Virus record (IMG/VR): IMGVR_UViG_2579778929_000009
Length of the DNA: 20,224 nt
From: a virus
Taxonomy: Duplodnaviria > Heunggongvirae > Uroviricota > Caudoviricetes
Strand: one strand, 5' to 3'
Part shown: positions 931-18,290 of the stretch, one piece after another
Layout of the letters: every line of letters starts with the position of its first letter
How positions within the stretch are numbered: the stretch's first letter is position 1
Program-made: the position numbers and the translations under genes
The notes under the pieces: generated by a model
Database searches by the model: none
Seen by the model: only the letters and a program-made list of their open reading frames with translations
Told to the model about the DNA's origin: nothing

Positions 931-1024
931 CAGTTTGGTAATTGACTAATCATGAGTCGCAACTCCCTAATCAGTTTGCTAAAATCAATCAAGGCAGCCT
1001 CCCATAGCTTACTGCCATAAAAAC

Positions 1025-1058
1025 AAAACCCCGCTTGCTGCCAACAAACGGGGTTTTT
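1025..1058. terminator. Putative bidirectional rho-independent terminator downstream of the endolysin gene
   Basis: aaaaccccg ... cggggttttt: an 8 bp stem with a large 15 nt loop, flanked by an A-run on the left and a T-run on the right, so it is hairpin plus U-tract in both orientations. Confidence 0.45.
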
Positions 1059-1147
1059 ACTTTTATTCACTTACATTTTGCCAGTTCGCAGGATTTCGTG
1101 TTATCCGTCCGCCTTGGCCAACGTCATTGATTAGCAAAATATTCTGC

Positions 1148-1681
1148 TTATCTGTCGATTCCCCAGCACGCCAGCGCGCTCTCCTGGTCACGACGGGATA
1201 CCTGACCGTAACAGTTATTTGAGCGAATACGGCAGTCTCTGCCACCGTCCTTAATCCACCAGCGAATCGCCTCACACGCTCCCCTGCGATCACCTGCATT
1301 AATTCGTTTATAAAACGTCGACGGAAAACACTTACCGGGGCCAATGTTGTACGGACAGAATGACGCGATCCCCGCTTTCTGGGGTTCACTCAATGGCACT
1401 CTGATGTTTTTCTCCACCCATGCCAGCGCCTTATCACGCTCAATGGCGTTAACCCGGTCGCATTTTTCCTTCGACAACTTCATGCCCGGAACGACAGGTT
1501 TGCCATCCACCAGGATGGCACCGCGGCAGATGGTCCAGATACCCGCGCCATCACGGTATGCCGTGGTGTGGTTACCTTCCTTTTCATCCAGAAACTGGTC
1601 GAGAATGTCAGGCGCAGGCGCACCAGCGGCAATCAGCGCCAGAACGGCAGCCGACAGGCCGTATCTGATTTTTGCGTTCAT
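1148..1681 (-). CDS. Phage SAR endolysin (lysozyme, T4-lysozyme-like fold), RrrQ/R21-like
   Basis: 177 aa. The N-terminal hydrophobic, Gly/Ala-rich segment YGLSAAVLALIAAGAPA is typical of a signal-anchor-release domain. It sits directly downstream of a pinholin in a lysis cassette, and its length equals that of the Qin RrrQ lysozyme as I recall it. Confidence 0.85.
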   Translation of the reverse strand: MNAKIRYGLSAAVLALIAAGAPAPDILDQFLDEKEGNHTTAYRDGAGIWTICRGAILVDGKPVVPGMKLSKEKCDRVNAIERDKALAWVEKNIRVPLSEPQKAGIASFCPYNIGPGKCFPSTFYKRINAGDRRGACEAIRWWIKDGGRDCRIRSNNCYGQVSRRDQESALACWGIDR

Positions 1682-1786
1682 GGATATTTATCAGGATTTA
1701 TCGGTTTCTGAGCCCTGGATATGTTTATCAGTTCCAGCCTGTTGCCTCAGGCTGCTAACAGGTCAATACAATCATGAGGATTATTT

Positions 1787-2059
1787 ATGGACAATAACAC
1801 CATTTCTCTACAGGAGTTGCTCGACAGCATTTCCAGGCTTCGGGAAGACGTGAATACCCTTACCGTCGCCTTCTCATATCTGGCATTCTCAATTCCAAGG
1901 GAACAGATGCAATCAACGCTGGCATCAATCCAGTTTGAATCATGCAATCCCAAATGGTCTCAGGAACAACAAGACTCTTTCAGGCGGCTTGCTGTATTAC
2001 TGGATGAAAAATATGCTGGTAAAATTACCATTTCGGCGGACTCTTCAGAGAACCCGTAA
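1787..2059 (+). CDS. Hypothetical 90 aa protein encoded opposite to the lysis genes (uncertain)
   Basis: ORF with a GAGGA Shine-Dalgarno 7 nt upstream of the ATG and a non-repetitive protein sequence. It lies in a 343 bp gap between the ydfR-like gene and the lysozyme gene, and its 3' end overlaps the convergent ydfR-like gene by 35 nt. No homolog recognised. Confidence 0.3.
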   Translation: MDNNTISLQELLDSISRLREDVNTLTVAFSYLAFSIPREQMQSTLASIQFESCNPKWSQEQQDSFRRLAVLLDEKYAGKITISADSSENP

Positions 2060-2369
2060 TTATTCCCGGTAGTTTTCCTCTGTAGGTTATCAACACATCC
2101 TGCGCCTCTAAAATTACGGGGCGCTTTTCCGGCGACTGCTCATCCCCTTCACATAACCCGGCAGCAACATCCAGGAAGACCTGTCTGATGCTCCTTCTGG
2201 CTGCTGCCTCATAAAACTCCAGCGCGGCACCTTCAACACGGTCCAGCGAGATGTCCAGGTCAAAAATTTCACCGTCAAAGCGTTTTTTGTCCCGTAACGC
2301 TAAAGTTACCGTAACTTTATTCTCAAAATTGCGGATCCCTTTCACAATCAGTTCATAGTTTTGAGTCAT
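2025..2369 (-). CDS. YdfR-like (DUF1327-type) protein located between holin and endolysin
   Basis: 114 aa ORF with a GGAGAG Shine-Dalgarno, directly following the holin stop. Its position mirrors essQ-ydfR-rrrQ in the K-12 Qin prophage; the family assignment is from memory of that gene order, not from sequence alignment. Confidence 0.55.
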   Translation of the reverse strand: MTQNYELIVKGIRNFENKVTVTLALRDKKRFDGEIFDLDISLDRVEGAALEFYEAAARRSIRQVFLDVAAGLCEGDEQSPEKRPVILEAQDVLITYRGKLPGIITGSLKSPPKW

Positions 2370-2373
2370 TGAA

Positions 2374-2589
2374 TTACTCTCCCCGTGCAGCCTTACGACG
2401 GTCCTCTCTGATTTTGAAATACAGGTTAGTCAGATATGTCAGCAGCCCAAACAGCAGACTCCCCAGCACGCCTATTGCCGCCCACTGAGACGGGGAAACC
2501 CTGTCCAGCAACTGCAGGAACCAGTAGCCCGTTCCCACCGCTGACGTGGTGTATGACACACCTGTTGTGATTTTTTCCATCTGGTACAT
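2374..2589 (-). CDS. Class II holin (pinholin), phage 21 S21-like, with a dual-start motif
   Basis: [71 protein letters not shown] is near-identical in its C-terminal two thirds to my recollection of S21 (…[25 protein letters not shown]…[20 protein letters not shown]). Met1 and Met4 give 71 aa and 68 aa products (antiholin and holin). A GGGAGACGGGG Shine-Dalgarno precedes the start. The six-frame ORF extends upstream to 2667, but that extension lacks support. Confidence 0.85.
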
Positions 2590-2739
2590 ACCCCGTCTCC
2601 CGTTATCCGGAAGCTGACAACAATAAAAAAAGCCACCAGTTAAGTACTGATGGCTCTGATAACTCATGCAGGCATCTCAGACGACCCACTGACACTACCG
2701 GTGAGTTTAACGATACCTTCCATTTGACTGGCTCACTTT

Positions 2740-4596
2740 TTATGATGATGCTGGTGCATTTATCTCCAGCACCAGACTTTCTATCTCAACGCCATACGCT
2801 GCATTTTTGGTAATATCCGTCAGCGTCAGCGCATTCAGCCCCAGTGTCAGACTGTCTTTTATGACCTGGAATGCCGGGCCAGCCACTCCATTCAGTTTCG
2901 GAGTAACCGTGGCACTGCCGGCGGTGAACACCAGCTCCAGCGTCTGCCAGTCGTTACTGTAATTCCCGAACTCGCCCAACTTTGTGTTTCCTGCTTTCCT
3001 GTGATGCATCAGATTCAGTTTGCCGTCTGTGGTCTGGGTGAAGAACGACATCAGGAACGGGTTACCAGTCCCGGTCATCGCCACGACGTCAGGTAACGCT
3101 ACATCGGTATACAGATAAATTCCCAGACCGAACTGGTTGTTGGTCAGTGCGCCTGACAGTCGAAACTTACAGCTCAGTCTGCCACCCCGTGTCAGCAGGG
3201 AGACTGCGTCATCCACCGGATGCATCAGGGACCAGGTTTTATTGCTCTGCTTGGTAACCTTAAACACACCATCTTCCAGCGCAACACTGCCGCCGGTGAT
3301 GGTCCAGCCCTGCGCAGCAGCCTCTCCGGCTGTCGGCAGCAGGGAGACTGTACGAACGGATGTGTCACCATCAGACGGCCCCGATGGCGTGTCGCCGCCG
3401 GGCGAGGGTTTAATCTCCGGTGCGGTACCGCTGATGAAGGCGCTGGTTCGACCAACTGCGTTCAGAATAGCGGTTGCCAGGCGATCCGAAATAATGCCCC
3501 TGCGCGCCCATGAACTGAAATGTGTCGGACGATTTGACGATACCCAATTACCATTACTACGGGATTGCGCGCCGTAATAACCTGCATCAGCAATATCCGG
3601 GTCTTCTGCCGGTAAGTTGGTGGGCGTGTTGTTGCCGTTACCGTCGGTCATGAACGGCACAAAGAAAACGTTGTCGCTCTCCCTGTTTTTGTACGCGCCG
3701 TAGACGGAGTCATACTGTGTGCCGTATGTGTTTTTCCAGTAATACGTCGTGTCGCCACAAATCCACGGTACAACTGCAGCACTGCCGCCATGGCACTGCG
3801 CCGCCAGCCCGGCAAGGTCAGCACGGAACTGCTGTACCATTGCAAGAAATGCTGCTGGCTGCTGGGCGTAACTGGCATTCGTCATATCGAATTCCCCCTG
3901 CATCCAGCATATCGCCAGCAAAACGTTTTTCGGGTTTTTCTGCAATGCTGCCTTCGTGCGGAAAAGCAGATCCTGATATAATGGTTTACCCACACCCCAG
4001 CGTGCCGAATCCTGGCTGGCCCCCGTGTCCGCACTGAATGTCCCCTCCGCGCCCTGGGTGAATGCCGAACCACCACGACAGCATGGTACCAGCAGGATCC
4101 CCGCATTATTAGGGATATACGGAAGCAGTTTTTTGGCAATATGTAAGCCCTGTCCGACACAGCCGTACTGCCCTTTGCTCAGGTCAGCCCGGGGATGGTT
4201 AATCGTACTCATATCCTGAACATCATGCAGACAATGGTCAGCAGGAATGATGTCGTTAAATACGCATACTTCACCACCGGGAGTCACTGTGTTACGACGG
4301 GCCAGTTGCTTAATGCGCGGATGGGGCGCATCGTATGAATCCGGAAGCGGAAGCCCTTCACCGTAAGCCATGGCATTGGACTGCCCGGCCAGTACGATGA
4401 CGTAGTACCACTCCGGCTCAGTTGCACCACTGACGACCACATCACCTTCTGCTGCAATCGCCTGCATCAGGGTATAAGGGGTTATGGCCACCGGACTACC
4501 AAACGGCTGCCAGCCCTCTTTCAGTTTATGTGTCAGCTTTTCCGCAAGATCTGACGGCGACGCCGCCCTGACAACATCATAGTGTTTAAATGCCAT
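2740..4596 (-). CDS. Prophage 9-O-acetyl-sialic-acid esterase, NanS-p-like (SGNH/SASA hydrolase)
   Basis: 618 aa with a GQSNA motif near the N-terminal domain (SASA/DUF303-type esterase signature) and a GGGAGGA Shine-Dalgarno. It lies between the tRNA cluster and the holin, which is where nanS-p homologs sit downstream of stxAB in Stx phages. Confidence 0.8.
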   Translation of the reverse strand: MAFKHYDVVRAASPSDLAEKLTHKLKEGWQPFGSPVAITPYTLMQAIAAEGDVVVSGATEPEWYYVIVLAGQSNAMAYGEGLPLPDSYDAPHPRIKQLARRNTVTPGGEVCVFNDIIPADHCLHDVQDMSTINHPRADLSKGQYGCVGQGLHIAKKLLPYIPNNAGILLVPCCRGGSAFTQGAEGTFSADTGASQDSARWGVGKPLYQDLLFRTKAALQKNPKNVLLAICWMQGEFDMTNASYAQQPAAFLAMVQQFRADLAGLAAQCHGGSAAVVPWICGDTTYYWKNTYGTQYDSVYGAYKNRESDNVFFVPFMTDGNGNNTPTNLPAEDPDIADAGYYGAQSRSNGNWVSSNRPTHFSSWARRGIISDRLATAILNAVGRTSAFISGTAPEIKPSPGGDTPSGPSDGDTSVRTVSLLPTAGEAAAQGWTITGGSVALEDGVFKVTKQSNKTWSLMHPVDDAVSLLTRGGRLSCKFRLSGALTNNQFGLGIYLYTDVALPDVVAMTGTGNPFLMSFFTQTTDGKLNLMHHRKAGNTKLGEFGNYSNDWQTLELVFTAGSATVTPKLNGVAGPAFQVIKDSLTLGLNALTLTDITKNAAYGVEIESLVLEINAPASS

Positions 4597-4789
4597 GAAT
4601 CCTCCCGGCCGGGATAATATTGTGAGTAAAATGAGGAGCGGGCTGAAGTCCGGAAGTTACAGGACAATGGCAGAAGAGAGACAACAGCCCGCAATACGAA
4701 AAAGGCCGCGCTATTGCGCAGAGTGATTACTGTCGGATATTATTCGCCAGCTGAAATATTACTTCACGTTTTATTGTTTATTCCTTGCC

Positions 4790-4818
4790 GCCCGCGTCTC
4801 CCAGCGCGGGCTTTTTTT
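4790..4818 (+). terminator. Rho-independent terminator on the plus strand with no obvious upstream plus-strand gene
   Basis: gcccgcg (4790-4796), loop tctcccag, cgcgggc (4805-4811), followed by ttttttt (4812-4818). Confidence 0.55.
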
Positions 4819-4823
4819 GCCCA

Positions 4824-5060
4824 CAAGAAAACCCCTCCGGAGAGGGGCTAAAGCCGCGTATCTGTATCATCATGCACATGGTGCCGGGTGCCTCCCGGTG
4901 AGTTCAGCCCGGTGCCACTAAACCCGCGTCATTCTCGTTTTGATAATCAGAGATTATACCGTCACCAGTCGCCCCTCCGCTCAGGGGGATTCACCATGCG
5001 AAATTTTTTTAACAAATGCCCAGTCTGACAGGCAACTGTCAACTTACTGAATTGTGAGCA
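4824..5060. repeat. Paralogous non-coding module A (~235 bp), hairpin-rich
   Basis: Shares conserved blocks with module B: cccctccggagaggggct, catggtgccgggtgcctcccggtga, gcccctccgcNcagggggattcaccatgc, ttttaacaaa and ctgaattgtgag. Contains three perfect short palindromic hairpins. Confidence 0.7.
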
Positions 5061-5093
5061 ACATAGCATTTAACGGGGAACCTGTTTTCTGCA

Positions 5094-5122
5094 GTAAAAA
5101 GGCCCACCGGAGCGGATGGGCC
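5094..5122 (-). terminator. Putative minus-strand terminator between the two modules
   Basis: ggccca ... tgggcc stem; on the minus strand it is followed by ttttta. Confidence 0.45.
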
Positions 5123-5310
5123 TGGAAGGATAGCGGTCATGTGATGCCGGTTTCCCGGTAACTCAGCACCGGTATCTGAGTCAACGTTTTCTCTACTGGG
5201 TCATTTCCGATACGCCCTGCCTGCTGACAGGCTTTCATCACATCTGAAAATATAGCACCCTGACTGATACTGTAGTACCTAAGGTTCCAGAAACTGTGAT
5301 GTATCCGGCA

Positions 5311-5530
5311 CAGAAAAGCCCCTCCGGAGAGGGGCTGGAGAGTGGCGCTATGTGCCATTGCATGGTGCCGGGTGCCTCCCGGTGAATTCAGTACCAGCAC
5401 CTGAATCCGCGATTATCCCATATACCTACTCGCTGATTGCCCCTCCGCACAGGGGGATTCACCATGCCAGTTTCTTTTAACAAACTCCCCGCAAACCAGA
5501 CAACAGTCAACCGCCTGAATTGTGAGACAT
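5311..5530. repeat. Paralogous non-coding module B (~220 bp), hairpin-rich
   Basis: Same conserved blocks as module A in the same order. The hairpin cccctc-cgga-gagggg at 5319-5334 is followed by T-rich sequence on the minus strand. Confidence 0.7.
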
Positions 5531-5532
5531 TT

Positions 5533-5556
5533 AAAAAAAAGCCCGCAAAAGCGAGC
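5533..5556 (-). terminator. Putative minus-strand terminator immediately downstream of the tRNA cluster
   Basis: On the minus strand: gctcgc tttt gcgggc followed by tttttttt. The stem has one mismatch. Confidence 0.4.
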
Positions 5557-5571
5557 CAGTGAAAATAAGTG

Positions 5572-5648
5572 TGGCGCGTTGTACTGGATTCGAACCAGTG
5601 ACCGATTGCTTAGAAGGCAATTGCTCTGTCCGGCTGAGCTAACAACGC
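5572..5648 (-). tRNA. argO: tRNA-Arg (anticodon UCU), argO-like
   Basis: Manual cloverleaf: acceptor GCGTTGT/ACAACGC, D-arm AGCTCAGCCGGACAGAGC, anticodon loop CUUCUAA, T-arm GGTTCGAATCC, discriminator G. CCA is encoded. Confidence 0.8.
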
Positions 5649-5661
5649 AGGATACAGATAA

Positions 5662-5738
5662 TGGACCGCCTTCGGGGACCCGAACTCCGCGCAACCAGCT
5701 TCGAAGGCTGGCGCTCTTTCCTGATGAGCTAATGGCGG
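5662..5738 (-). tRNA. argN: tRNA-Arg (anticodon UCG), argN-like; fold has some mismatches
   Basis: Manual fold: D-stem GCTC/GAGC, anticodon stem CCAGC/GCTGG with loop CUUCGAA, acceptor 6 of 7 pairs, T-stem 4 of 5 pairs. Its position between the two other tRNAs matches the ileZ-argN-argO order of Stx phages. Confidence 0.55.
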
Positions 5739-5745
5739 TATGTGA

Positions 5746-5821
5746 TGGTGGCCCTTGCTGGATTTGAACCAGCGACCTGGCGATTATGAGTCGCTCGCTC
5801 TCACCACTGAGCTAAAGGGCC
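5746..5821 (-). tRNA. ileZ: tRNA-Ile2/Met-type (anticodon CAU), ileZ-like
   Basis: GGCCCTTTAGCTCAGTGGTGAGAGCGAGCGACTCATAATCGCCAGGTCGCTGGTTCAAATCCAGCAAGGGCCACCA. Acceptor GGCCCTT/AAGGGCC, anticodon loop CUCAUAA; closely resembles E. coli ileX as I remember it. Confidence 0.85.
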
Positions 5822-5870
5822 GGGAGCAGAATAATAATGGTGCGTAATTAATTCTGCAATCTCATCCGTT

Positions 5871-6920
5871 TCAAACGATTAAATCCTGAACTTCCCTGAC
5901 TGTCTGCTCAAAACGTCCGGTCTCCAGCTCAACACCAATCGCACGACGCCCCAGTGCCATCGCCGCTTTTACCGTTGAACCCGACCCCATGAAAAAATCC
6001 GCAACCAGATCACCAGGACGGCTACTTGCGCTGATTATCTGCTGCAGCATTTCTGCCGGTTTTTCGCACGGATGTTTCCCGGGATAGAACTGCACCGGTT
6101 TATGCGTCCACACATCGGTATACGGCACCTGCACCGTCACGCCAAAATACCGCCGCAGATGTTTATATTCACTCAGCAGCTCCGCATACTGCCGGTTCAG
6201 TGAGGTATACGTATCCACCAGCTGGTGGTGGAGCTTTTCCAGTTCACCACGCCGATGCTTCTCTTCTGCCACCCGGGCAAACAGCGCCTGTAATTTCAGA
6301 TAATCGCTTTCATTCGGTAGCTGCCACTGACTGGCACTGAACCAGTGCGACACCATGTTTTTCTTTCCTGTGGCATCTGCAATCTGTTTTGCCGTTATCC
6401 CCAAGGCCGCGCGCGCATCACGAAAGTAAGAAATCAGCGGGGCCATCACATGCTGTTTCAGTGCACTGCCCTTCGCCGCATACCCGGCATCTTTCGGACG
6501 ATACGGCCCCTGATAATGTTCCGCGAACAGAATGCGCTCTGTGGCGGGGAAATACGCCCGCAGGCTTTCCTTGTTGCACCCGTTCCAGCGTCCGGACGGC
6601 TTCGCCCAGATAATATGGTTCAGCACACTGAAGCGTTCACGCATCATGATTTCGATATCAGATGCCAGGCGATGACCACAGAACAGGTAAAGACTTCCGG
6701 CAGGTTTCAGCACCCGCCAGAACTGCGCCAGACACTGGTCCAGCCATTTCAGGTAATCATCGTCGCCCTTCCACTGGTTATCCCAGCCCTCAGGCTTCAC
6801 TTTAAAGTACGGCGGGTCCGTGACTATCAGGTCAACAGAATTTTCGGGTAACGACCGGATAAATTCCAGGCAGTCGGCGTTGATTAACTCACAACTGGAT
6901 ATTTTTACAGTATTAAGCAT
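5871..6920 (-). CDS. DNA methyltransferase (amino-MTase, N6-adenine or N4-cytosine; DPPY motif precedes the AdoMet-binding motif)
   Basis: 349 aa with DLIVTDPPYF (motif IV) near the N-terminus and FFMGSGST (motif I, AdoMet binding) near the C-terminus. Confidence 0.85.
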   Translation of the reverse strand: MLNTVKISSCELINADCLEFIRSLPENSVDLIVTDPPYFKVKPEGWDNQWKGDDDYLKWLDQCLAQFWRVLKPAGSLYLFCGHRLASDIEIMMRERFSVLNHIIWAKPSGRWNGCNKESLRAYFPATERILFAEHYQGPYRPKDAGYAAKGSALKQHVMAPLISYFRDARAALGITAKQIADATGKKNMVSHWFSASQWQLPNESDYLKLQALFARVAEEKHRRGELEKLHHQLVDTYTSLNRQYAELLSEYKHLRRYFGVTVQVPYTDVWTHKPVQFYPGKHPCEKPAEMLQQIISASSRPGDLVADFFMGSGSTVKAAMALGRRAIGVELETGRFEQTVREVQDLIV

Positions 6921-7012
6921 GGATCATTAAGCCTGTCTCTGATAGGCTCATTCTGCTTTTGCGCAAAGCAGTGGGCCTGAGGTTTGCTTGTGAACCCAAC
7001 GCATGAGCAGAT

Positions 7013-7043
7013 GGCTGGTGGGTGCCCCTAACACCCACCAGCC
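7013..7043. promoter_or_regulatory. Perfect 12 bp stem-loop with no adjacent U-tract, between the small ORF and the methyltransferase gene
   Basis: ggctggtgggtg - cccctaa - cacccaccagcc. Confidence 0.4.
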
Positions 7044-7056
7044 GCCCATTTACCAC

Positions 7057-7084
7057 AAATAAAAAAGCCTTCACTGCGGAAGGC
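7057..7084 (-). terminator. Minus-strand rho-independent terminator overlapping the end of the small ORF
   Basis: On the minus strand: gccttc cgcagt gaaggc followed by ttttttattt. Confidence 0.55.
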
Positions 7085-7268
7085 GTCTGTAACAACCGAA
7101 CTGATAGTCTGCCAGACCCGCCATAACCAGCTGAGTCAGTATTAACTGGCAGCGTTCGCGTGAAAGGTAAGTATTCTGCGCAATCTCCCCGACTGTCGCC
7201 GGTTCGGTGACGCTTAATTCATTAAACACCACTCTGGCGGTTTCTGTCATATCCTGCTGTTTTAGCAT
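7071..7268 (-). CDS. Hypothetical small protein (~65 aa) downstream of Q
   Basis: ORF from the internal Met (MLKQQDMTETARVVFNELSVTEPATVGEIAQNTYLSRERCQLILTQLVMAGLADYQFGCYRRLPQ) with a weak AAGGGA Shine-Dalgarno. No family recognised. Confidence 0.35.
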   Translation of the reverse strand: MLKQQDMTETARVVFNELSVTEPATVGEIAQNTYLSRERCQLILTQLVMAGLADYQFGCYRRLPQ

Positions 7269-7388
7269 GTCTTTTTCCCTTTTCCGGTTAACGTGACACA
7301 CCAATAACTCTTGTCGAAAAAGCCAGCAAGCTGAAAGACAGGTATTCACCGCCACCAGCGCGTTTACTGTACTGACGCGATTTCAGTC

Positions 7389-7412
7389 ATAAAAAACCCG
7401 CCAGGCGGCGGG
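7389..7412 (-). terminator. tR-prime-like terminator downstream of the Q gene
   Basis: On the minus strand: cccgcc gcct ggcggg followed by ttttttat. It lies ~85-105 bp downstream of the Q-like stop. Confidence 0.55.
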
Positions 7413-7461
7413 GTGTAAAAAATCTTCTAACGTCAGGCATAAAACGCCTATCGTTAGAGCA

Positions 7462-7489
7462 AATTTACCACAGATTCGGGAAAAATCAA
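7462..7489 (-). promoter_or_regulatory. Candidate late promoter (pR-prime-like) on the minus strand, just downstream of Q
   Basis: On the minus strand: TTGATT, 16 nt spacer, TAAATT. Its position immediately after the Q stop and before the terminator is analogous to lambda pR-prime/qut/tR-prime. Confidence 0.35.
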
Positions 7490-7494
7490 CAACA

Positions 7495-8316
7495 CTATCG
7501 CGTTACCCTCTTTAACTGCCGCTCCGCCCATGCCTCTTCAATGTCAAACCGAACCACCAACGTATCGTAAAAGCGTTTCACTGATTTTTTCCACGTATCA
7601 AGCGTGATAGCACTCGTCACTTTGCGTATGGCATTAAATGCCTCCGTTGATGGTAGTCTTTCACAGCCACGACCACCACAACGCTGGCAGTCTCTGATAA
7701 CAGGCATACCACGTTTTACCGACTCTTCACGATGAATGGCAACACCACGCCCACGGCAGTCTTTACAGGCAGTGGAAATCTCCCCCTTCCCTTTACATTC
7801 AGGACAAGAAACTTTCACCACCTCCCGAATTTTTTTCCATTCTTCCCAGTAAGACGGATACACACCTTTCGTACACTTTGCCCATACTGGCGGCTTGCCA
7901 TCCGGATACTGAACCTTGTTTGTAAAAACTTCGCCTTCAATAAATTTTTCCCCTCGGCAACAGGGGCACTGCTTTTTACTCGCTGCGCTGCGGGCATAAT
8001 CCTCAAAAGCGTACGAAGCCATAATGCGCATCACTACCGGTTTTATTTCTGCCGGAAGTTTTCTCAACGCCGCCACACGATCGCACCGACTGAGTGCATA
8101 ATCTGCCAGTAATTCTGTTGCCCGCGCCCTGTCATTCATACTGATGCCCATTTTCCCCAGGAACGCAGAAAACCCCATCTCAGCCCGATTCTGTGTCATG
8201 CCCTGCGCGGCCATCACATCAGTGATACTCAGCGCATCTTTCGACGTTGAGGCCGATGCATCAGTCAGGCCGGGGGATTTTGGGGAGTAGTATTTCGGTA
8301 AATCTTCCAGTTTCAT
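7495..8316 (-). CDS. Putative late antiterminator Q-like protein with DnaJ-type zinc-finger repeats
   Basis: 273 aa, located between RusA and the late promoter/terminator. The C-terminal half carries CxxCxGxG repeats (CPECKGKGE, CKDCRGRGV, CQRCGGRGC and one CPCCRGEK variant). The Q assignment is positional; the N-terminus MKLEDLPKYYSPKSP resembles my recollection of the Qin QuuQ start. Confidence 0.5.
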   Translation of the reverse strand: MKLEDLPKYYSPKSPGLTDASASTSKDALSITDVMAAQGMTQNRAEMGFSAFLGKMGISMNDRARATELLADYALSRCDRVAALRKLPAEIKPVVMRIMASYAFEDYARSAASKKQCPCCRGEKFIEGEVFTNKVQYPDGKPPVWAKCTKGVYPSYWEEWKKIREVVKVSCPECKGKGEISTACKDCRGRGVAIHREESVKRGMPVIRDCQRCGGRGCERLPSTEAFNAIRKVTSAITLDTWKKSVKRFYDTLVVRFDIEEAWAERQLKRVTR

Positions 8317-8693
8317 TTTTTGACCTGCTCTTCATGCATTATGGGGTAAATCTTCACCCCCAGACGTCCACCAGATACTGGCTGACCACGAACGATATTG
8401 ATTTCATCAAACTGCTCATCGTCCATTAGCAACCCCGCATGCGTCAGCGCATCCAGCGGCGCTTTCAGAATATTGTCCAGATCACGGCGGCGCTTATCCG
8501 GTGGTTCTGCAATAATTTTTATTGCCAACCTTCCGGACAGGCTTAATTTCAGCCGCTGCTGGCGAACAATAAGCGCCACTGCCCGGCGATAACGCTCCCC
8601 GGCTTTTGATACAAAATATGTGCTGCCACGACGACGCCAGTAAGTGTTCACCGTTGGCGGGTAAGGCAAAACAAATTCTATGCGTTCAGTCAT
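8313..8693 (-). CDS. rusA: RusA-family Holliday junction resolvase
   Basis: 126 aa. LPYPPTVNTYWRRRG and PDKRRRDLDNILKAPLDALTHAGLLMDDEQ match the RusA motifs I remember (LPWPPSNNRYY…, [20 protein letters not shown]…). Confidence 0.85.
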   Translation of the reverse strand: MTERIEFVLPYPPTVNTYWRRRGSTYFVSKAGERYRRAVALIVRQQRLKLSLSGRLAIKIIAEPPDKRRRDLDNILKAPLDALTHAGLLMDDEQFDEINIVRGQPVSGGRLGVKIYPIMHEEQVKK

Positions 8694-9752
8694 TTATGCT
8701 TTCCACTTCAGAACACCCGAATTTCTCGCGTGCATTAAAAAACGAATCAGCAACAACAGCTGGCTGCCGTGTTTTTCTTCAAAATCTTTTACCCCGGCGT
8801 GTAGTTCGCTATGGCATTTACGGCACAGCGGAATAACAAACAAATCATCAGCCTTTGTTCCCATCCCTCCCAGTCCATGACCAATGATGTGATGCGGATC
8901 ATCTGCCTGATTGCCACACGTCATGCATTTCTGCGTTTTTACCCAGCGCGTGTATACAGGCATCTCTTCCCGTTGTGATTTCTGGCGCTGGAGATACTGA
9001 GCCGGTGACTCGGGATCAACGGCAATGCTGACCACCGTCTTTTCCTGTGGTGGGTTCTGTTGCTGGTGGGCGTGAGGCAGCGGCGCAAGATTTTTTGTGC
9101 GCTGTTTCAGTATGCTGGTGGCGGTCTGCTCTCCCGGTATGATGTCGCTTTCACTGTACACAGAGCGAATTTTTTCCGCACGCAACCCCAGCGAACGACG
9201 TAATACCGCTTCCGGTAGCGCGTCCGCCACCTGATTGCGGACCGCCCACCAGGATAATTCAGCCAGAGATAATTCACGCTCCTGCGTACCGCTTATTGCG
9301 TGACCGATGACGTCAATCATCCATGCTGACAGGTTTTGATGAGCAAGTTGCCCGAGTGATTCGGATGTCTGGTCACGCAGCTGGTTGTCGCAGTGCCAGC
9401 ACAACACCATTGCGCCGGTACCATAACGGTGAATGACGGTTTCGCTGTGATGATAATCGCCGTGTGGCCACTGGCAGGATTTAATATGGCGCAACAGCCA
9501 GTCAGACAATGCACCAGCACCACCAGCAGCACGAATCACCCGTGCGTTACTGAAAAACGGCAGCAATGTTTTGTCTTCCACCAGCGGCTGGCGAGCGGCA
9601 GGAACGACCCCGGACGGCAGATTACGCATGCTTTTTGGTTCCGGCTCCACCAGTATTCTGCCGTTATGGAATGCTGACATTGATTCACGGCCTGGCTTAA
9701 CGATAACCAGACCGAGTTCCGGTACCAGAACAGATCGAAGTAATACCCGCAC
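8694..9752 (-). CDS. DUF968/YdfU-like prophage protein with a C-terminal HNH-like Cys/His cluster
   Basis: 352 aa (Qin YdfU is ~349 aa as recalled). The C-terminus has CMTCGNQADDPHHIIGHGLGG…CRKCHSELH, a CxxC…HH…CxxCH pattern. Confidence 0.65.
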   Translation of the reverse strand: MRVLLRSVLVPELGLVIVKPGRESMSAFHNGRILVEPEPKSMRNLPSGVVPAARQPLVEDKTLLPFFSNARVIRAAGGAGALSDWLLRHIKSCQWPHGDYHHSETVIHRYGTGAMVLCWHCDNQLRDQTSESLGQLAHQNLSAWMIDVIGHAISGTQERELSLAELSWWAVRNQVADALPEAVLRRSLGLRAEKIRSVYSESDIIPGEQTATSILKQRTKNLAPLPHAHQQQNPPQEKTVVSIAVDPESPAQYLQRQKSQREEMPVYTRWVKTQKCMTCGNQADDPHHIIGHGLGGMGTKADDLFVIPLCRKCHSELHAGVKDFEEKHGSQLLLLIRFLMHARNSGVLKWKA

Positions 9753-10083: not shown

Positions 10084-10111
10084 AGTATAAATAAACTGGC
10101 TCCAGTGTAAA
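10084..10111 (-). promoter_or_regulatory. Candidate sigma70 promoter on the minus strand for the nin/Q operon, at the edge of the AT-rich island
   Basis: On the minus strand: TTTACA, 16 nt spacer, TATACT, about 45 nt upstream of the 10032 start. Confidence 0.4.
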
Positions 10112-10299
10112 GCCCCACCTTAATGGAATAAAAACCAAACAACAGATTGCTGGGATAAAAATACAACGCTTATTATTAAAAGCGGTTAGATAAATTAAAT
10201 TTTAATGTTATGCAAATCTGCCAGATTAGCATAATATTTCATTTGAAAACCGCTGAAATAACAATCTTATCGGGATTAATCATATTAAGGTGAGTAAAT

Positions 10300-10386
10300 A
10301 TGGAAAACAACAAATCTGCACATTACGCTCCTTTTTTATCTGTAATACTTTTTGTATTTTGTTGTGTATGGGCGGTATTTTTATAA
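10300..10386 (+). CDS. Candidate 28 aa hydrophobic peptide (MENNKSAHYAPFLSVILFVFCCVWAVFL)
   Basis: An AAGGTGAG Shine-Dalgarno lies 5 nt upstream of the ATG. The product is a single predicted transmembrane helix. It is convergent with the protease gene and separated from it by a strong bidirectional terminator. It is too short for the six-frame track. Confidence 0.35.
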   Translation: MENNKSAHYAPFLSVILFVFCCVWAVFL

Positions 10387-10403
10387 AACACACCCACAAA
10401 TAA

Positions 10404-10436
10404 ATCAAACCCGCTACAGCGGGTTTGATTTATATA
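10404..10436. terminator. Strong bidirectional rho-independent terminator at the 3' end of the ATPase-protease operon
   Basis: atcaaacccgc - taca - gcgggtttgat: an 11 bp stem with T/A-rich flanks on both sides, 5 bp after the protease stop. Confidence 0.7.
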
Positions 10437-10440
10437 GTTG

Positions 10441-12705
10441 TTATACGGAAACTGGCACACGAGCAGGCAATGGATAGTGAGCCCAGTTATTAGCATTTAA
10501 AGCTCTTACGCCATCAGCATAAACTTGTGTTTTTCCATCTAATGATTTTAAAGTTACTACAATAGTTACAGGTAAAGGCTCCATTAAGGCCGGTTCATTC
10601 GCTCTCAACGTTGTTTTAGCTTGAAGAGCCCAGTTACCCGAAGTAATTCCTTTATTAAATGCCTTGCGATGAATTTTTACTGGTGACCACTTTCCACCAT
10701 GCTCAATTTGAGCTCTCTCATATCCAGATTGACCGTTTTCTCCTTCCATAGGTACTTTTCCTTTTATAGTATTATTCTCAATTAAGCCAAAACTTAGCTC
10801 TACGTTCGCGCGAACATATTCACTGCCGGCATTAGGGTTCAGTGGTGGTGCATATGCAGCAGTAATTACAATCTCACCTTTAAATTTTCCATTTTGAATA
10901 AGTGCCGATGGTATGGGATAGTTTTCCTTTCTCCACCTCACCCCAGGAACCAAGAATGTTTGGAAAATCAGAGTAAACCTATCATCACTATCATATAAGG
11001 TCTCAATAACCTCATTAGGAATTCCCGCTCCCAAATAGCGTCTTTCACTTGGCGAGTAATCAGGAGAAGATAATTGAGCGGAATGAATTAATAATGCTTT
11101 AATCAATGATGGTGAAACATTAAAGTCTGAATTAGTGGCTATTCTCTGCCATGTATGCGCAGCTAAACTTGCCACAATTGGAGCAGCAAAACTAGTACCA
11201 AAATTAGAGCAAAGCCTATTATCTGGCCCTACGACCTTTAAACTGCTTGCTCCTACATTCCAAGGTCTATGAACCCCACCGCCAGCATGGATTATATCTG
11301 GCTTTGGAGTAAATACAGGCCCAGGGCCACGACGAGTATATGGTGTCGGTGTTCCAATTTCACTTAAAGCATCATTAGCTTCCATATGAGAAACTGAACC
11401 AACTGTTAGTGCTCGGACTGACTCTCCAGGAGAGGAAATTAAATCAGCACCTCCAAGCGGATCAGGATTTGGCCATGTACGTATAGGTTCATCTACATAA
11501 TTACCTGCAGCAACTACAAACAAAATACCAAATTTATCGCTGAGCCGATCTAACTCCATCGCAAAATCACTAAACATCTGCTCATTACATGGTCCGCCTC
11601 CCAAAGATAAATTCCAGACTTTTATATCTGGTCTTTTATTTACAGCATCTGCTAGCCTCAGAATTAAATCTGATATATAAGATCCATTTTCATCTAAAGC
11701 ACAAACATCATGGATTTTAGATTTTGTATCAGGAATCCATGGATGATTGTCATTTAAAAAATGAGCGCCTGATATCAATGAAGACACCATAGTCCCATGT
11801 TCATAACTCGTATCAGGAGGAATTACGTATGTTTCCCTACTCACTACCCAAGGAGTAATTGTTGCCGCGATGGGGCTTACCCCAGTGTCAAATACAGCAA
11901 CAATGGGTAATTCTTCTGATGGTACGGGAAAGCTATTTGTTTCAATGCCAACAGAATCACTTACACTAACCGGGAATGCTGAATATTTTGGTTCTGGAAT
12001 TAACGTTCTTATACCCGGGTAATCAATGAGAATGTCTAATATATATCTATCATTTGGGGATAAATCCATTATCCTTAATAAGGGAAGACCACATTTTGGT
12101 CTAATCTCATCATATTTAACTCCGTGTTGTTCTAATATAGAAATAACGTTTTCATAGTTGTTGTAAGTTGCATCTTCACCTGTGTACTCAAATAGTCGTA
12201 CAAGGATGTTTGATGATTCAAACAAACCATCAGTGCCTCCTGGAACCTTCCTATTCTCATCCCAAGGTTCAATGCGCTCAATCGCGCTTAGATTAGCCAA
12301 AATCGCTTTAATATTCCGATGTAAAATGACTGACTCTAATACGTCAAAACAGCCGGCATGAGCAGCAACCAACATTTCATCTATTTTGGCATGACCGGCA
12401 TTTTGCAATCCAGCCTCTTGAGCAATTTTGTTCGGCCTATGCGTTTTGGCTATTCCCTGGTCTCTTAATTTGAAAACCAAAGTACCCAAGCTTCCAGGGT
12501 ACTCTGAAAGTTTGGATTCTAAATAATGTTTACTGGTTGTTAAATTTCTTACTAGCCCTTGTCTATATTCGGCTGTTACATCAACCAATACCTTTGCCCC
12601 ACCGCCAGCGTTTACTATTGCACCCAAGTCACTACTGGAAAAAGGGATTCTTAACATTGGGTTTGTAACTTTTGCGTTACTAAACTGTGTACCCCTTCTG
12701 CTCAT
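10441..12705 (-). CDS. S8 subtilisin-like serine protease (IetS-like) with a ~260 aa N-terminal and ~200 aa C-terminal extension
   Basis: 754 aa. Catalytic signature in canonical order: Asp (VAVFDTGV), His (YEHGTMVSS), oxyanion Asn (VVAAGNY), Ser (GTSFAAPIVAS). An AGGAG Shine-Dalgarno precedes the start; the start overlaps the ATPase gene by 26 nt. Codon usage is AT-rich. Confidence 0.8.
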   Translation of the reverse strand: MSRRGTQFSNAKVTNPMLRIPFSSSDLGAIVNAGGGAKVLVDVTAEYRQGLVRNLTTSKHYLESKLSEYPGSLGTLVFKLRDQGIAKTHRPNKIAQEAGLQNAGHAKIDEMLVAAHAGCFDVLESVILHRNIKAILANLSAIERIEPWDENRKVPGGTDGLFESSNILVRLFEYTGEDATYNNYENVISILEQHGVKYDEIRPKCGLPLLRIMDLSPNDRYILDILIDYPGIRTLIPEPKYSAFPVSVSDSVGIETNSFPVPSEELPIVAVFDTGVSPIAATITPWVVSRETYVIPPDTSYEHGTMVSSLISGAHFLNDNHPWIPDTKSKIHDVCALDENGSYISDLILRLADAVNKRPDIKVWNLSLGGGPCNEQMFSDFAMELDRLSDKFGILFVVAAGNYVDEPIRTWPNPDPLGGADLISSPGESVRALTVGSVSHMEANDALSEIGTPTPYTRRGPGPVFTPKPDIIHAGGGVHRPWNVGASSLKVVGPDNRLCSNFGTSFAAPIVASLAAHTWQRIATNSDFNVSPSLIKALLIHSAQLSSPDYSPSERRYLGAGIPNEVIETLYDSDDRFTLIFQTFLVPGVRWRKENYPIPSALIQNGKFKGEIVITAAYAPPLNPNAGSEYVRANVELSFGLIENNTIKGKVPMEGENGQSGYERAQIEHGGKWSPVKIHRKAFNKGITSGNWALQAKTTLRANEPALMEPLPVTIVVTLKSLDGKTQVYADGVRALNANNWAHYPLPARVPVSV

Positions 12706-13834
12706 ATGCTCCTGACTCCTTCAGAATGTTTGAAATTACTCTTGATGTAAGTTTGTACAAATTAGCAAGAACTCTGATAGAAAATAATTTTTTATCTTTA
12801 GAACGTAACCAACGAATTTCATCTTCGTAAGTGCTTAAATTTACACCTTCCATAAGCGATTGCGCAAGATACAAACGCCTATACAATTTATGGTGATTTA
12901 TCACACTTGCACCTTCAATAACTGCATCCCTACGTGCATCCAAGCTCACCTGTTCAATTATTGCTCCGGATAATCCCTCCGATTTTCTTGATAAATCACT
13001 TAAATCTAGATCGCTACATATCATATTCTTTAAACGATTTTTCCAAATTAACTCTCTCTGATGTATGTCAGGCAGAGGCATTGGAATTCTGAAGCTAAAT
13101 CGCCTCCAGATTGCAGGATCCAGAAGTTGCTCATGGTTAGTTGAGGCAATAATTACCGTATCCTCTGATGCCGCATCCATATTCTGCAATAGTGAAATGA
13201 CAACTCGCTGAAGCTCACCTATATCTCTCTCATTACCTCTTGCTCCAGCTAAAGCATCAAATTCGTCTAAAAAAAGCACTGATGGCCTCTGCATTACATA
13301 ATCGAAAACCTGTCTAAGATTTTTGCTGGTTTGTCCCAATAAACTACTAATCAAAGTATCGCAACGCACTGTAAGAAGTGGAAAATCTAAGCGGGTAGCG
13401 ATGTACTTAGATAACATAGTCTTACCTGTTCCTGGCTTTCCATACACGAGCATACGACTCGGCAATGCTGCATCAGCTTTAACAAACTCATCATAACGTT
13501 GAACATTAGTGATAAACTCTTCAACACGGGTACTGATTGCTGCAGGCAGAAAAATCTCTGAACTGTCTAATTTAGGATAACTGACATCAACAGTGTTGAG
13601 TCGACTATCAATATCTACCGGTAATGAGCCCAGAGATATCCCACCTCCAGCCCTTTGAGCTCCTGCCAACGCCTGGGGAGCTCTAAGCAACCTTTCTCTT
13701 ATCATTCTGGCTTGCTTGACCTCCCCTTTTTGTTCGAGCTTATCTGCCAGCAACCCAGCATAATTACTAGCCATCGAAGCATTTGCCTTTGTTGCACCTT
13801 CAATGATTTTTAACACTTCTGATAAATAATCCAT
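12680..13834 (-). CDS. AAA+ ATPase (IetA-like)
   Basis: 384 aa. Walker A GKPGTGKT, Walker B VLFLDEFD, sensor 1 IIASTNH, arginine-finger region PAIWRRF. A GGGAG Shine-Dalgarno precedes the start. First gene of a two-gene operon with the S8 protease. Confidence 0.8.
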   Translation of the reverse strand: MDYLSEVLKIIEGATKANASMASNYAGLLADKLEQKGEVKQARMIRERLLRAPQALAGAQRAGGGISLGSLPVDIDSRLNTVDVSYPKLDSSEIFLPAAISTRVEEFITNVQRYDEFVKADAALPSRMLVYGKPGTGKTMLSKYIATRLDFPLLTVRCDTLISSLLGQTSKNLRQVFDYVMQRPSVLFLDEFDALAGARGNERDIGELQRVVISLLQNMDAASEDTVIIASTNHEQLLDPAIWRRFSFRIPMPLPDIHQRELIWKNRLKNMICSDLDLSDLSRKSEGLSGAIIEQVSLDARRDAVIEGASVINHHKLYRRLYLAQSLMEGVNLSTYEDEIRWLRSKDKKLFSIRVLANLYKLTSRVISNILKESGAYEQKGYTV

Positions 13835-14027
13835 TCAACACTCCCACAACAAAAAGCCACAGCAATCAAAAAATGAGCACACAGAATCAAAATACTCTCT
13901 AATCGTAACGCATTTTGAGATTTTTGATACGTTTTTTTGGGATTATGTAACGCCAAATGGTCATTTTGTGTCAGAAAAATAAATCTTAGTACCGAGAATA
14001 TGTAGCTTCCATCCTTCATCGTTCTAT

Positions 14028-18207: not shown

Positions 18208-18249
18208 CTCACCAAACAACTAGTCACCAGTTAAGACACCGCAAAAATT

Positions 18250-18290
18250 TACCCATGGGTATTTACTTTTTAAATACCTATGGGTATCCT
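18250..18290 (+). promoter_or_regulatory. OL-like operator pair and candidate pL-like promoter downstream of the repressor gene
   Basis: Perfect palindrome tacccatgggta (18250-18261) and tacctatgggta (18275-18286), 25 bp apart, bracketing a candidate promoter (TTTACT, 17 nt spacer, TATCCT) oriented toward the ydfA-like to dicB genes. Confidence 0.45.

Follow-up and report, generated by a model that had tools for sequence, protein, structure and literature searches.

Small RNA genes at the toxin-cassette site in the late region of a probable Stx2-lineage lambdoid prophage

The 20,224-nucleotide stretch of DNA analysed here (the window) very probably includes the late regulatory region of a lambdoid prophage belonging to the Stx2-phage lineage, in which the toxin cassette is absent and small RNA (sRNA) genes occupy its slot. 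The slot lies in a 975-bp gap (positions 4597-5571) between the nanS-p start codon and tRNA-Arg(UCU) and, judged by its sequence, holds sRNA genes of the STnc100 family together with a convergent sRNA gene. The initial sequence-only reading of this DNA, that it parallels the late region of Stx-converting phages while being devoid of stx genes, is supported by our analysis. The finding is largely an ordinary one and for the most part already described, including the moron site 3' of PR' with its convergent sRNAs (Tree 2014, PMC4104026), the relation of PasD to STnc100 and its location between Q and the esterase gene (Zhu 2026, doi 10.64898/2026.05.13.724894), and the STnc100 gene 75 nt downstream of stx2 (PMC12370729); a third, STnc100-like gene (module 3) is possibly the only item not yet described.

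Late-region synteny and the absence of stx

Genes on the minus strand follow the order Q, small ORF, methyltransferase, tRNA-Ile2(CAU), tRNA-Arg(UCG), tRNA-Arg(UCU), gap, NanS-p, holin, DUF1327 and lysozyme (Table 1), so that Pfam and ARAGORN bear out the arrangement proposed from the letters alone (Q-like gene, methyltransferase, three tRNAs, NanS-p, holin, endolysin). The synteny of Q, ileZ-argN-argO, nanS-p, S and R typical of Stx phages is present, as established by Pfam, by tRNA identities and by alignments with three Stx2 phages; the stxA/stxB operon that Stx-converting phages carry between Q/PR' and the lysis genes is missing.

Table 1. Features of the late region and their positions in the window
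Feature	Position	Strand	Basis
Q antiterminator, 273 aa	7495..8316	-	Pfam PF03589 Antiterm, E 9e-51
Candidate PR', TTGATT-16 nt-TAAATT	7489-7462	-	read from sequence
Lambda-like pause element AACGAT	7455-7450	-	read from sequence
Terminator tR', stem and T run	7412-7397 (whole PR'/tR' stretch 7391..7489)	-	terminator scan
Small hypothetical ORF, 65 aa	7071..7268	-	198-nt hypothetical CDS annotated in near-identical genomes and Stx2 phages
Terminator after the 65-aa ORF	7084-7067	-	terminator scan
DNA N6/N4 methyltransferase	5871..6920	-	Pfam PF01555, E 4e-43
tRNA-Ile2, anticodon CAU, ileZ type	5746-5821	-	ARAGORN
tRNA-Arg, anticodon UCG, argN type	5662-5738	-	ARAGORN
tRNA-Arg, anticodon UCU, argO type	5572-5648	-	ARAGORN; 76/77 identical to 933W argO
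Intrinsic terminator 3' of tRNA cluster, left edge of variable slot	5533..5557	-	terminator scan
STnc100 copy 1	5306..5503 (Rfam match 5306-5496)	-	RF02076, 136.3 bits, E 2e-30
Copy 1 predicted promoter, TTGTCT-18 nt-TAAAAG	5503-5474	-	alignment by eye
Copy 1 predicted RNA	~5467-5310 (terminator 5336-5317)	-	5' end by homology to PasD2 GCAUGGUGAAUCC
Module 3, diverged STnc100-like gene	5094..5257	-	sub-threshold Rfam match
STnc100 copy 2	4819..5035 (Rfam match 4819-5028)	-	RF02076, 161 bits, E 1e-36
Copy 2 predicted promoter, TTGCCT-18 nt-TAAAAA	5035-5006	-	alignment by eye
Copy 2 predicted RNA	~4999-4823 (terminator 4849-4830)	-	5' end by homology to PasD2
Convergent sRNA	4626..4818	+	terminator/promoter scan; 3' end set by terminator 4790-4811 and T run
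nanS-p, prophage sialate O-acetylesterase	2740..4596	-	Pfam DUF1737, SASA and DUF6645
Lysis genes	1148..2589	-	Pfam; PGAP annotation of a 99.4% identical locus
Class II holin	2374-2589	-	Pfam PF04971; 93% identity to 933W S
DUF1327/YdfR	2025-2369	-	Pfam PF07041
Lysozyme (endolysin)	1148-1681	-	Pfam PF00959; 91% identity to 933W R

The Stx2 phages 933W/Sp5, Stx2_EH1910 and Stx2_95 share with the window the order Q, candidate PR'/tR', tRNAs, tRNA terminator, STnc100, nanS-p, holin and endolysin, and each has a single STnc100 gene immediately upstream of nanS-p, where the window has one as well. In Stx2_95 and Stx2_EH1910 the gene order is identical, methylase included, and the small ORF is likewise common to them and the window, whereas in 933W Q differs and the methylase is missing. 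Overall identity to the Stx2 phages is 90-94% in the tRNA/methylase block and 91-93% in S and R. By segments, Stx2_95 aligns with window positions 5534-7411 at 94% and with 3463-5057 at 73%, Stx2_EH1910 with 5534-7699 at 93-94%, and 933W with the tRNA block (5972-5534) at 90% and with STnc100/nanS-p (5057-3463) at 69-77%; the 93-94% blocks span the tRNAs, methyltransferase, small ORF and tR', and in Stx2_EH1910 only, PR' and part of Q as well. Among individual genes, the 3' part of Q is 93% identical to quuQ of the Stx2a phage Stx2_EH1910, the methyltransferase gene matches the Stx2a phage "DNA methylase" at 93-94% DNA identity, and nanS-p matches 933W L0105 and Stx2 phage yjhS at 69-77%.

Homology between the window and the Stx2 phages stops at 5534, and the unaligned gap relative to 933W is exactly where stx2AB falls. 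The 1339-bp stx2AB cassette of Stx2_95 occupies the place of 476 bp in the window, with the same picture in 933W and Stx2_EH1910. The cassette is bounded on one side by the tRNA terminator (in the window 5533-5557, the same element as the 933W-annotated "terminator upstream of the stx genes") and on the other by the box CACAATTCAG..TTGAC, which begins every STnc100 module. An STnc100 gene is located 75 nt 3' of stx2B in 933W, with a convergent AsxR, and also adjoins stx2B in Stx2_95 and Stx2_EH1910. Unlike these phages, the window lacks stx2AB and has in its place an extra STnc100 gene and the diverged third gene, and its convergent sRNA is not the AsxR of Stx phages. The claimed synteny thus holds in the alignments with all three phages, on both sides of the gap. 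Equally, the claim that the interval has no stxA/stxB-like ORFs withstood a tBLASTn check with Stx2A and Stx2B, which gave no match in the interval (best E 0.84 across the whole window; 100% identity in a positive control on an Stx2 phage). A search for stx remnants by tblastn at E up to 10 and by blastn against the three Stx2 phages yielded none, and the alignments and tblastn revealed neither a promoter nor a coding remnant of stx.

The three tRNAs were said to serve the codons AUA, CGA and AGA, which are rare in E. coli, and all three were recovered by ARAGORN; codon usage in 11 window ORFs amounts to 13.7 per 1000 for AUA and 13.1 for AGA vs. only 3.6 for CGA. The tRNA(CAT), labelled Met by ARAGORN and tRNA-Ile by PGAP in near-identical genomes, is identical at 76/76 positions to 933W ileZ, annotated there as a tRNA-Ile reading AUA, and has a possible promoter read from the sequence (TTGCAG-17 nt-TATTAT, 5859-5831). 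The tRNA-Arg(UCG) matches 933W argN at 70/77 positions, with an A:A mismatch in the acceptor stem and G replacing A58, and scores 43 bits in Rfam vs. 55-56 bits in Stx phages; by sequence, it is possibly decaying.

Further upstream, a test for a Q-dependent operon revealed the PF03589 Q gene followed by TTGATT/TAAATT, AACGAT and the terminator at 7412-7397; the candidate PR' region resembles lambda PR' (TAAATT...AACGAT). Terminator-like sites are abundant in the 4400-7600 region (13 vs. 3.2 +/- 1.5 in shuffles), and on the sense strand the terminator scan placed seven from PR' to nanS-p and four within 750 bp. At the opposite end, an IS3-family element interrupts the prophage just past the endolysin, and the prophage may be defective; given this element and the degraded-looking tRNA-Arg(UCG), the Q-dependent late operon may no longer work as a whole. 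A blastn search of the window for PasA, which sits between nanS-p and holin in E2348/69 PP2, returned no significant match.

Small RNA genes in the interval

The interval contains direct repeats with a spacing of 468-487 bp. Copies 1 and 2 match the full STnc100 model (1-206) above the Rfam gathering score of 47 bits and are thus members of RF02076. The hairpin modules that the sequence-only reading placed here instead of stx are real and represent sRNA genes, while the word "instead" proved too simple, since Stx phages keep one STnc100 gene at this place. The sequence GCAUGGUGAAUCC, the 5' end of PasD2 (defined from RNA-seq coverage and northern size, with PasD sequences taken from the Table S6 coordinates of the 2021 paper and the E2348/69 genome), recurs at 5467 and 4999. 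The promoters and RNA ends of the array are predictions or transfers from homologues. Because the last base of their -10 elements is A or G, the sRNA promoters went unflagged in a generic promoter scan, and they were found by eye in aligned sequence upstream of the PasD2-type 5' end. A consensus structure of 10 family members retains 13 of 33 pairs through two-sided changes. Copy 2 is 87% and 77% identical to the stx2B-adjacent STnc100 of Stx2_EH1910 and 933W, respectively, and the primers of an RT-qPCR study of STEC vesicles (PMC12370729) match copy 1 exactly at 5466-5447 and 5393-5374. The whole region (at least 80% of window 4300-6200) is present in 312 of 5426 complete E. coli genomes; strain Res13-Lact-PEA14-20 matches window 4300-6200 at 99.9% identity.

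The last 54 nt of the convergent sRNA differ at two positions from the E2348/69 PP6 locus that encodes the sRNA E2348C_1409.E2348C_1408.IGR (NC_011601, minus strand, 1444797-1444978), known from RIL-seq, i.e., sequencing of Hfq-bound RNA pairs. The target motif of that sRNA, GGCAAGG, is complementary to the seed-like CCUUGCC at 4783-4789, and sequence, seed and terminator all assign the convergent gene to this EPEC sRNA (EcOnc08/21/42 group). Its 5' end is uncertain: a promoter ATGCCA-17 nt-GATAAT (4590-4618) would yield an RNA of ~190 nt, and an alternative TGaAATATT (4752-4760) one of ~55 nt. AsxR (RF02703) and AgvB (RF02702), whose family models include a conserved ~42-nt 3' region and with which it shares only position and convergent orientation, were ruled out, as neither matched 4400-5900 even at E 10 with a tool that scored AsxR at 88 bits in the 933W control.

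Module 3 (5094-5267) reaches 30.1 bits (E 2.6e-4) on the STnc100 model, where PasD2 itself scores 41.4 bits; being below the gathering score, it is a diverged STnc100 relative and no member by the Rfam criterion. Its fold architecture is that of copy 1, it has a predicted extended -10 (TGcTATATT, 5257-5249), and its predicted RNA (~5243-5094) would end with the terminator at 5123-5100. A scan of 5426 complete E. coli genomes placed it in 673 (~12%), and it is annotated in none; strains ATCC 11775 and 55989 have it at 100% identity, and one-genome-per-species contigs gave a single match, in E. albertii. In IMG/VR viral contigs STnc100 flanks 93 of 116 module 3 copies on both sides. Between two alleles (85% identical), conservation extends over the predicted promoter, the body and the terminator but not over the upstream spacer, and the linker GACCGCUAUCCUUCCA is unchanged in nine of 10 distinct alleles, with a single substitution (CCTTCT) in one contig. 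Double changes keep four of eight pairs of the closing stem; covariation support within module 3 is thin because it has only two main alleles, the scan of 117 viral contigs having yielded just 10 alleles in two groups, too few for statistics. We give even chances to the proposal that module 3 is a genuine, unnamed third branch of STnc100/PasD and that the slot is a cassette site, where recombination at the tRNA terminator and at the conserved STnc100 scaffold swaps two alternative cargoes, the three-sRNA array and the stx operon.

The closest described systems share some features with the window and differ from it in others. The EcOnc27/AsxR and AgvB pairs (Tree 2014, PMC4104026) have the same position 3' of PR', between cargo and a conserved esterase ORF, with an STnc100 sense sRNA facing an antisense sRNA terminator to terminator as in the window, where, however, the antisense partner comes from the EcOnc08/21/42 group and three genes in tandem, rather than one, make up the sense side. 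PasD1 and PasD2 of EPEC E2348/69 (Pearl Mizrahi 2021; Zhu, Shabalina and Storz 2026) occupy the same site between Q and the esterase/holin genes and have in common with the window copies the 5' end, fold plan and Hfq-type terminator; the window copies lack the UGUGAG seed, and their linkers are different sequences. The modules are nevertheless not PasD, since only the first ~40 nt align (blastn of PasD2 vs. the two copies covers nt 1-39 at 79% and nt 1-26 at 83%) and the seed differs. E2348/69 PP6 resembles the window in nanS-p, holin, YdfR and lysozyme (92-97%), in the convergent sRNA and in a copy-1-type STnc100, but this STnc100 is split by ISEc13, and module 3 and the second copy are absent. 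In the induced phage vB_EcoS-640R1, a 273-aa Q and tRNA-Ile precede the same STnc100/module 3/STnc100 array, but the array is followed there by an iraM-like gene, and both the methylase and the Arg tRNAs are absent.

Alternative explanations of the interval

Identity of 93-94% to Stx2a phages in the left flank, extending to 37 bp beyond the last tRNA, together with the repeated stx loss near Pas sRNAs suggested by Zhu et al., could indicate an Stx phage that recently lost its toxin genes, the interval being the scar of the deletion and the modules non-functional leftovers. We consider this improbable: the alignments and tblastn gave no stx remnant, and the slot has 476 bp absent from Stx phages, made up of a full sRNA gene and a diverged one whose predicted promoters and terminators are intact. 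The same triple array is moreover found in non-Stx phages with other flanks and in the 93 of 116 viral contigs, and the identity of the right flank to Stx phages, at only 73-87%, favours mosaic recombination over a simple deletion.

The density of sense-strand terminators, on the other hand, would suit modules acting only in cis, as a terminator/insulator stack shielding nanS-p and the lysis genes from the tRNA promoter or stray transcription and giving rise to no trans-acting RNA; dependence on terminators overridden by Q is an established property of lambdoid late operons. Such an exclusive role is unlikely, since a terminator needs ~30 nt and here the modules have 150-180-nt bodies whose multi-branch fold is conserved and shows compensatory changes, and a conserved -10 element precedes each module. 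The homologues, besides, are abundant, associate with Hfq, have numerous partners in RIL-seq and are seen also by RT-qPCR, and cis and trans roles are mutually compatible. It is least credible, and in our estimate very improbable, that small proteins are encoded here, with the repeats as duplicated coding sequence. Two minus-strand ORFs (5137-5400, 87 aa; 5413-5694, 93 aa) exist, and in related genomes the PGAP annotation has a partial plus-strand pseudogene ("hypothetical protein") that overlaps copy 1; conservation, however, tracks RNA stems and not codons. Both ORFs, the only ones of at least 60 aa in a Pfam search of the interval, were ruled out as genes, as neither had a Pfam match, one spans two tRNA genes and the other crosses an intrinsic terminator into the next module.

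Proposed operation and implications

In the preferred reading of a late regulatory region with sRNA genes in the toxin slot, induction would cause Q to load onto RNA polymerase at PR', and the modified polymerase would pass tR' and six more intrinsic terminators, such read-through allowing expression of the methyltransferase, three rare-codon tRNAs, nanS-p and the lysis genes. The moron slot, from the tRNA terminator to nanS-p, would contain four independent sRNA genes and no protein-coding cargo. Each sense-strand sRNA would have its own promoter, with a -10 of TAAAA(A/G) or TATATT, and give an RNA of 150-180 nt whose 5' end pairs with a segment preceding a short single-stranded linker, followed by an intrinsic terminator. 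Homology with PasD/STnc100 suggests that these sRNAs are Hfq-dependent, trans-acting by base pairing, and made in the lysogen without Q; association of the homologues with Hfq is known from Hfq CRAC in EHEC and from RIL-seq and northern blots in EPEC, and PasD targets from RIL-seq only. The linker, different in each copy (5363-5337, 5140-5124 and 4880-4850), would be the seed, and the terminators may also prevent expression of nanS-p and the lysis genes before Q appears.

Overall, what looks like a toxin phage without a toxin is a state that E. coli lambdoid prophages normally and frequently show, and the junctions at the tRNA terminator and the STnc100 promoter box show the position of the toxin cassette relative to its conserved flanks. 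The practical value of the finding is mainly in annotation, as a 1-kb gap full of regulatory RNA genes is skipped by standard pipelines. Finally, since the same STnc100 adjoins stx2B in toxin phages, the stx-less array would provide a convenient and safer context for learning the role of this RNA family in lysogens.

Gene order and synteny with Stx2 phages

The interval 4597–5571 is delimited exactly by a 618-aa minus-strand ORF encoding a NanS-p-type esterase, on the side of its start codon, and by the last of three tRNA genes. The late-gene order proposed in the sequence-only reading (Q, methyltransferase, three tRNAs, nanS-p, holin, endolysin) is borne out by Pfam assignments of the flanking genes (see the table) and by the anticodons CAU, UCG and UCU of the three minus-strand tRNAs (ARAGORN). 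Although ARAGORN labels the CAU tRNA as Met, it matches phage 933W ileZ (annotated as a tRNA-Ile reading AUA) at 76/76 positions, and PGAP likewise calls it tRNA-Ile in near-identical genomes. Across 11 window ORFs, AUA and AGA are used at 13.7 and 13.1 per 1000 codons, respectively, several-fold over the E. coli host average; CGA is unenriched (3.6 per 1000 codons). The tRNA-Arg(UCG) scores 43 bits vs. 55–56 for its Stx-phage counterparts. Among its 7 differences from 933W argN are an acceptor-stem A:A mismatch, a T-stem A:C mismatch and G for the conserved A58; this tRNA may be losing function.

Coordinates of features in the window, with the assignment on which each one rests
Feature	Position	Strand	Assignment
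Q antiterminator	7495–8316	minus	Pfam PF03589, E 9e-51
DNA methyltransferase	5871–6920	minus	Pfam PF01555
tRNA-Arg(UCG)	5662–5738	minus	ARAGORN
STnc100 copy 1	5306–5496	minus	Rfam RF02076, 136 bits
Module 3	5094–5267	minus	Rfam STnc100, relaxed thresholds, 30.1 bits, E 2.6e-4
STnc100 copy 2	4819–5028	minus	Rfam RF02076, 161 bits
Terminator of convergent RNA	4790–4811 + T run	plus	
NanS-p-type esterase	2740–4596	minus	Pfam DUF1737 + SASA + DUF6645
P21-type holin	from 2374	minus	Pfam
DUF1327/YdfR		minus	Pfam
Lysozyme	1148–1681	minus	Pfam
IS3-family transposase orfB	1–931	plus	rve domains
IetS, subtilase	10441–12705	minus	PADLOC E 6e-300
IetA, AAA ATPase	12680–13834	minus	PADLOC E 9e-143
DicF antisense sRNA	19610–19661	plus	Rfam 76.7 bits

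The same reading likened this order to that of Stx-converting phages, with no stxA/stxB-like ORFs in the interval. A tblastn search using the Stx2A and Stx2B proteins of an Stx2a phage as queries (100% identity in the control on that phage) gave a best E of 0.84 across the whole window and zero matches inside 4597–5571. In the alignment with the Stx2a phage Stx2_95, window positions 5534–7411 match at 94% (tRNAs, methylase, small ORF and tR') and 3463–5057 at 73% (one sRNA module and nanS-p), the space between these blocks being 1339 bp with stx2A and stx2B in Stx2_95 vs. 476 bp in the window. With Stx2_EH1910 the left block extends to 7699 and so takes in part of Q, which in this phage is of the 273-aa type as well. 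Phage 933W aligns over the tRNA block (90%), from the sRNA into nanS-p (69–77%), and over S (93%) and R (91%), but has a different Q and no methylase. At the level of junction sequences, the slot is bounded on the left by the terminator after tRNA-Arg(UCU) and on the right by the box CACAATTCAG..TTGAC opening an sRNA module; Stx phages carry the toxin cassette between these two edges, and in the window an sRNA module starts 14 nt past the T run of the tRNA terminator. Synteny thus holds on both sides of the slot for all three phages, and the search and alignment outcomes together support an Stx-phage-like late region without stx.

In 933W, the spacer upstream of ileZ (1970–2120), where the tRNA promoter pT is annotated, shows 90% identity to the final ~100 bp of the window's methyltransferase gene (5871–5972, minus) together with the intergenic region. 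This match suggests a remnant of a methyltransferase deletion in 933W.

STnc100-family sRNA genes in the slot

The hairpin modules previously noticed in the interval are present and can be identified as sRNA genes, two of them being complete copies of STnc100 by Rfam (gathering score 47) with a third, weak match, module 3, between them. In 933W, STnc100 lies 75 nt 3' of stx2B, with the anti-sRNA AsxR converging on it so that the two terminators face each other; STnc100 adjoins stx2B in Stx2_95 and Stx2_EH1910 too. In EHEC lambdoid prophages, convergent pairs of Hfq-bound sRNAs have been shown to occupy the "moron" site 3' of PR', with the cargo CDS on one side and a conserved ORF on the other, e.g., EcOnc27/AsxR 3' of stx2B (Tree et al., PMC4104026). 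In a 2025 study (PMC12370729), STnc100 was mapped 75 nt downstream of stx2 and found to be present in vesicles; the RT-qPCR primers used there match copy 1 exactly (93-bp amplicon). STnc100 is also related to the EPEC sRNAs PasD1/PasD2, located between Q and esterase or holin genes (Zhu, Shabalina and Storz, bioRxiv 10.64898/2026.05.13.724894).

PasD2 has been placed at NC_011601 741157–741328 by RNA-seq coverage and northern size, and since its start, GCAUGGUGAAUCC, recurs at window 5467 and 4999, the predicted 5' ends of copy 1 and copy 2, respectively, are placed there. Judged from this experimentally placed end, the first 29 positions of the Rfam model, which align to 5468–5496 and 5000–5028 (minus) and include the -10 element TGTTAAAA, look like promoter DNA rather than transcribed RNA. 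Upstream of the PasD2, copy 1 and copy 2 starts, a TTGnCT hexamer is followed by 18 nt, TAAAA(A/G) and 7 nt; module 3 has an extended -10 element, TGcTATATT (5257–5249), and a predicted start near 5243. Folding of copy 1 and module 3 yields a shared plan, in which an 8-bp stem closes a multi-branch loop that bears three or four hairpins, with a single-stranded linker and then an intrinsic terminator after it. Copy 2 departs from this plan in its minimum-free-energy fold but conforms to it in the Rfam alignment and in the family consensus. In the consensus fold of ten family members (the three window modules, homologues from 933W, two Stx2a phages and phage 640R1, and PasD2), 13/33 pairs are kept through changes on both sides, and the closing stem of module 3 is retained with different bases at 4/8 pairs.

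The linkers, counterparts of the region where PasD RIL-seq chimeras map, vary among modules (AUGCAAUGGCACAUAGCGCCACUCUCC, AUGACCGCUAUCCUUCC, CAUGUGCAUGAUGAUACAGAUACGCGGCUUU). Those of module 3 (CCUUCC; 5124–5140) and copy 1 (CUCUCC; 5337–5345), both minus, are complementary to Shine-Dalgarno-like sequences, a complementarity that would fit translational repression at ribosome-binding sites. In prophage PP6 of EPEC E2348/69 (18112–19790), ISEc13 is inserted inside a copy-1-type STnc100 gene, the 3' 138 bp of which are 100% identical to window 5315–5452.

Of 5426 complete E. coli genomes, 673 carry module 3 (annotated in none) as two alleles (at least 99% and about 85% identical). Conservation between these alleles extends over the -10 element, the RNA body and the terminator but not over the upstream spacer. 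Module 3 is also found in E. albertii and in 117 IMG/VR contigs, flanked by two STnc100 genes in 93 of the 116 scorable ones, as it is in the induced phage vB_EcoS-640R1. Module 3 is a conserved element.

The interval is unlikely to be the scar of a recent stx deletion: no stx remnant was found, the slot holds two extra intact sRNA genes absent from Stx phages, and the same sRNA array is found with other flanks. A coding function is not supported either, both ORFs of at least 60 aa in the interval being devoid of Pfam matches, one overlapping two tRNA genes and the other crossing a terminator. A purely cis-acting role of the modules as stacked terminators, while able to coexist with trans action, does not explain their conserved 150–180-nt structured bodies and promoters.

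Overall, the Stx-phage-like late region without stx is a correct but ordinary finding; 312 complete genomes carry the region as a whole with a coverage of no less than 80% (up to 99.9% identity), and the gene order, stx-less state, STnc100 at this site, PasD relation and convergent sRNA are already published. Module 3, the sole item for which we found no published description, is at most a new member of a known family.

Convergent RNA and other elements

A strong plus-strand terminator abuts that of copy 2. The sequence preceding it, CACGUUUUAUUGUUUAUUCCUUGCC, has two differences from the PP6 locus of the RIL-seq sRNA E2348C_1409.E2348C_1408.IGR (minus strand, 1444797–1444978), which has EHEC homologues EcOnc08/21/42, hundreds of chimeras with the cfa 5'UTR, and a target motif, GGCAAGG, complementary to CCUUGCC. 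The 5' end of the window RNA is uncertain: a promoter-like site at 4590–4618 would give about 190 nt (EPEC estimate 182 nt), and an alternative, TGaAATATT at 4752–4760, about 55 nt. The candidate long-form promoter overlaps the nanS-p start codon (within 4590–4640, plus); the long form would run antisense to the nanS-p 5' leader over its full length, making a cis-antisense effect on nanS-p possible. Identity with AsxR or AgvB was ruled out, because neither gave a match at E up to 10.

Elsewhere in the window, a two-gene IetAS anti-phage/plasmid defence system (10441–13834), rich in AUA and AGA codons, lies within a ~4-kb insert (about 10092–14063) absent from PP6; a near-identical prophage, aligned over window 1001–9000 only, has hokD, QueH and DUF977 annotated at about this place. 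The DicF gene maps to the immunity/early region, an arrangement also seen in Qin-type prophages. The IS3-family transposase gene carries an ALIL frameshift pseudoknot (1–72), and homology to related prophages ends just past the endolysin, so that this element appears to truncate the prophage, which may be defective.

Candidate late promoter and predicted expression

The region 3' of the Q stop codon (7391–7489, minus) contains TTGATT-16 nt-TAAATT, AACGAT and a terminator (7412–7397). The pause-like AACGAT occupies predicted positions +1 to +6 of the candidate PR', a placement like that of the pause element in lambda PR'. This arrangement predicts a lambda-like late promoter region with a tR' hairpin and a terminated leader RNA of ~65 nt, in the position taken by the StxS RNA in Stx phages. 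A terminator scan of 4400–7600 returned 13 terminator-like sites vs. 3.2 ± 1.5 in shuffles; with seven sense-strand intrinsic terminators between the candidate PR' and nanS-p, Q-modified polymerase should be required for transcription to reach nanS-p and the lysis genes. In a lysogen without Q, transcription of the tRNAs and of each sRNA would start at dedicated promoters and stop at dedicated terminators; by homology, the sRNAs would regulate host or prophage mRNAs through Hfq-dependent base pairing.
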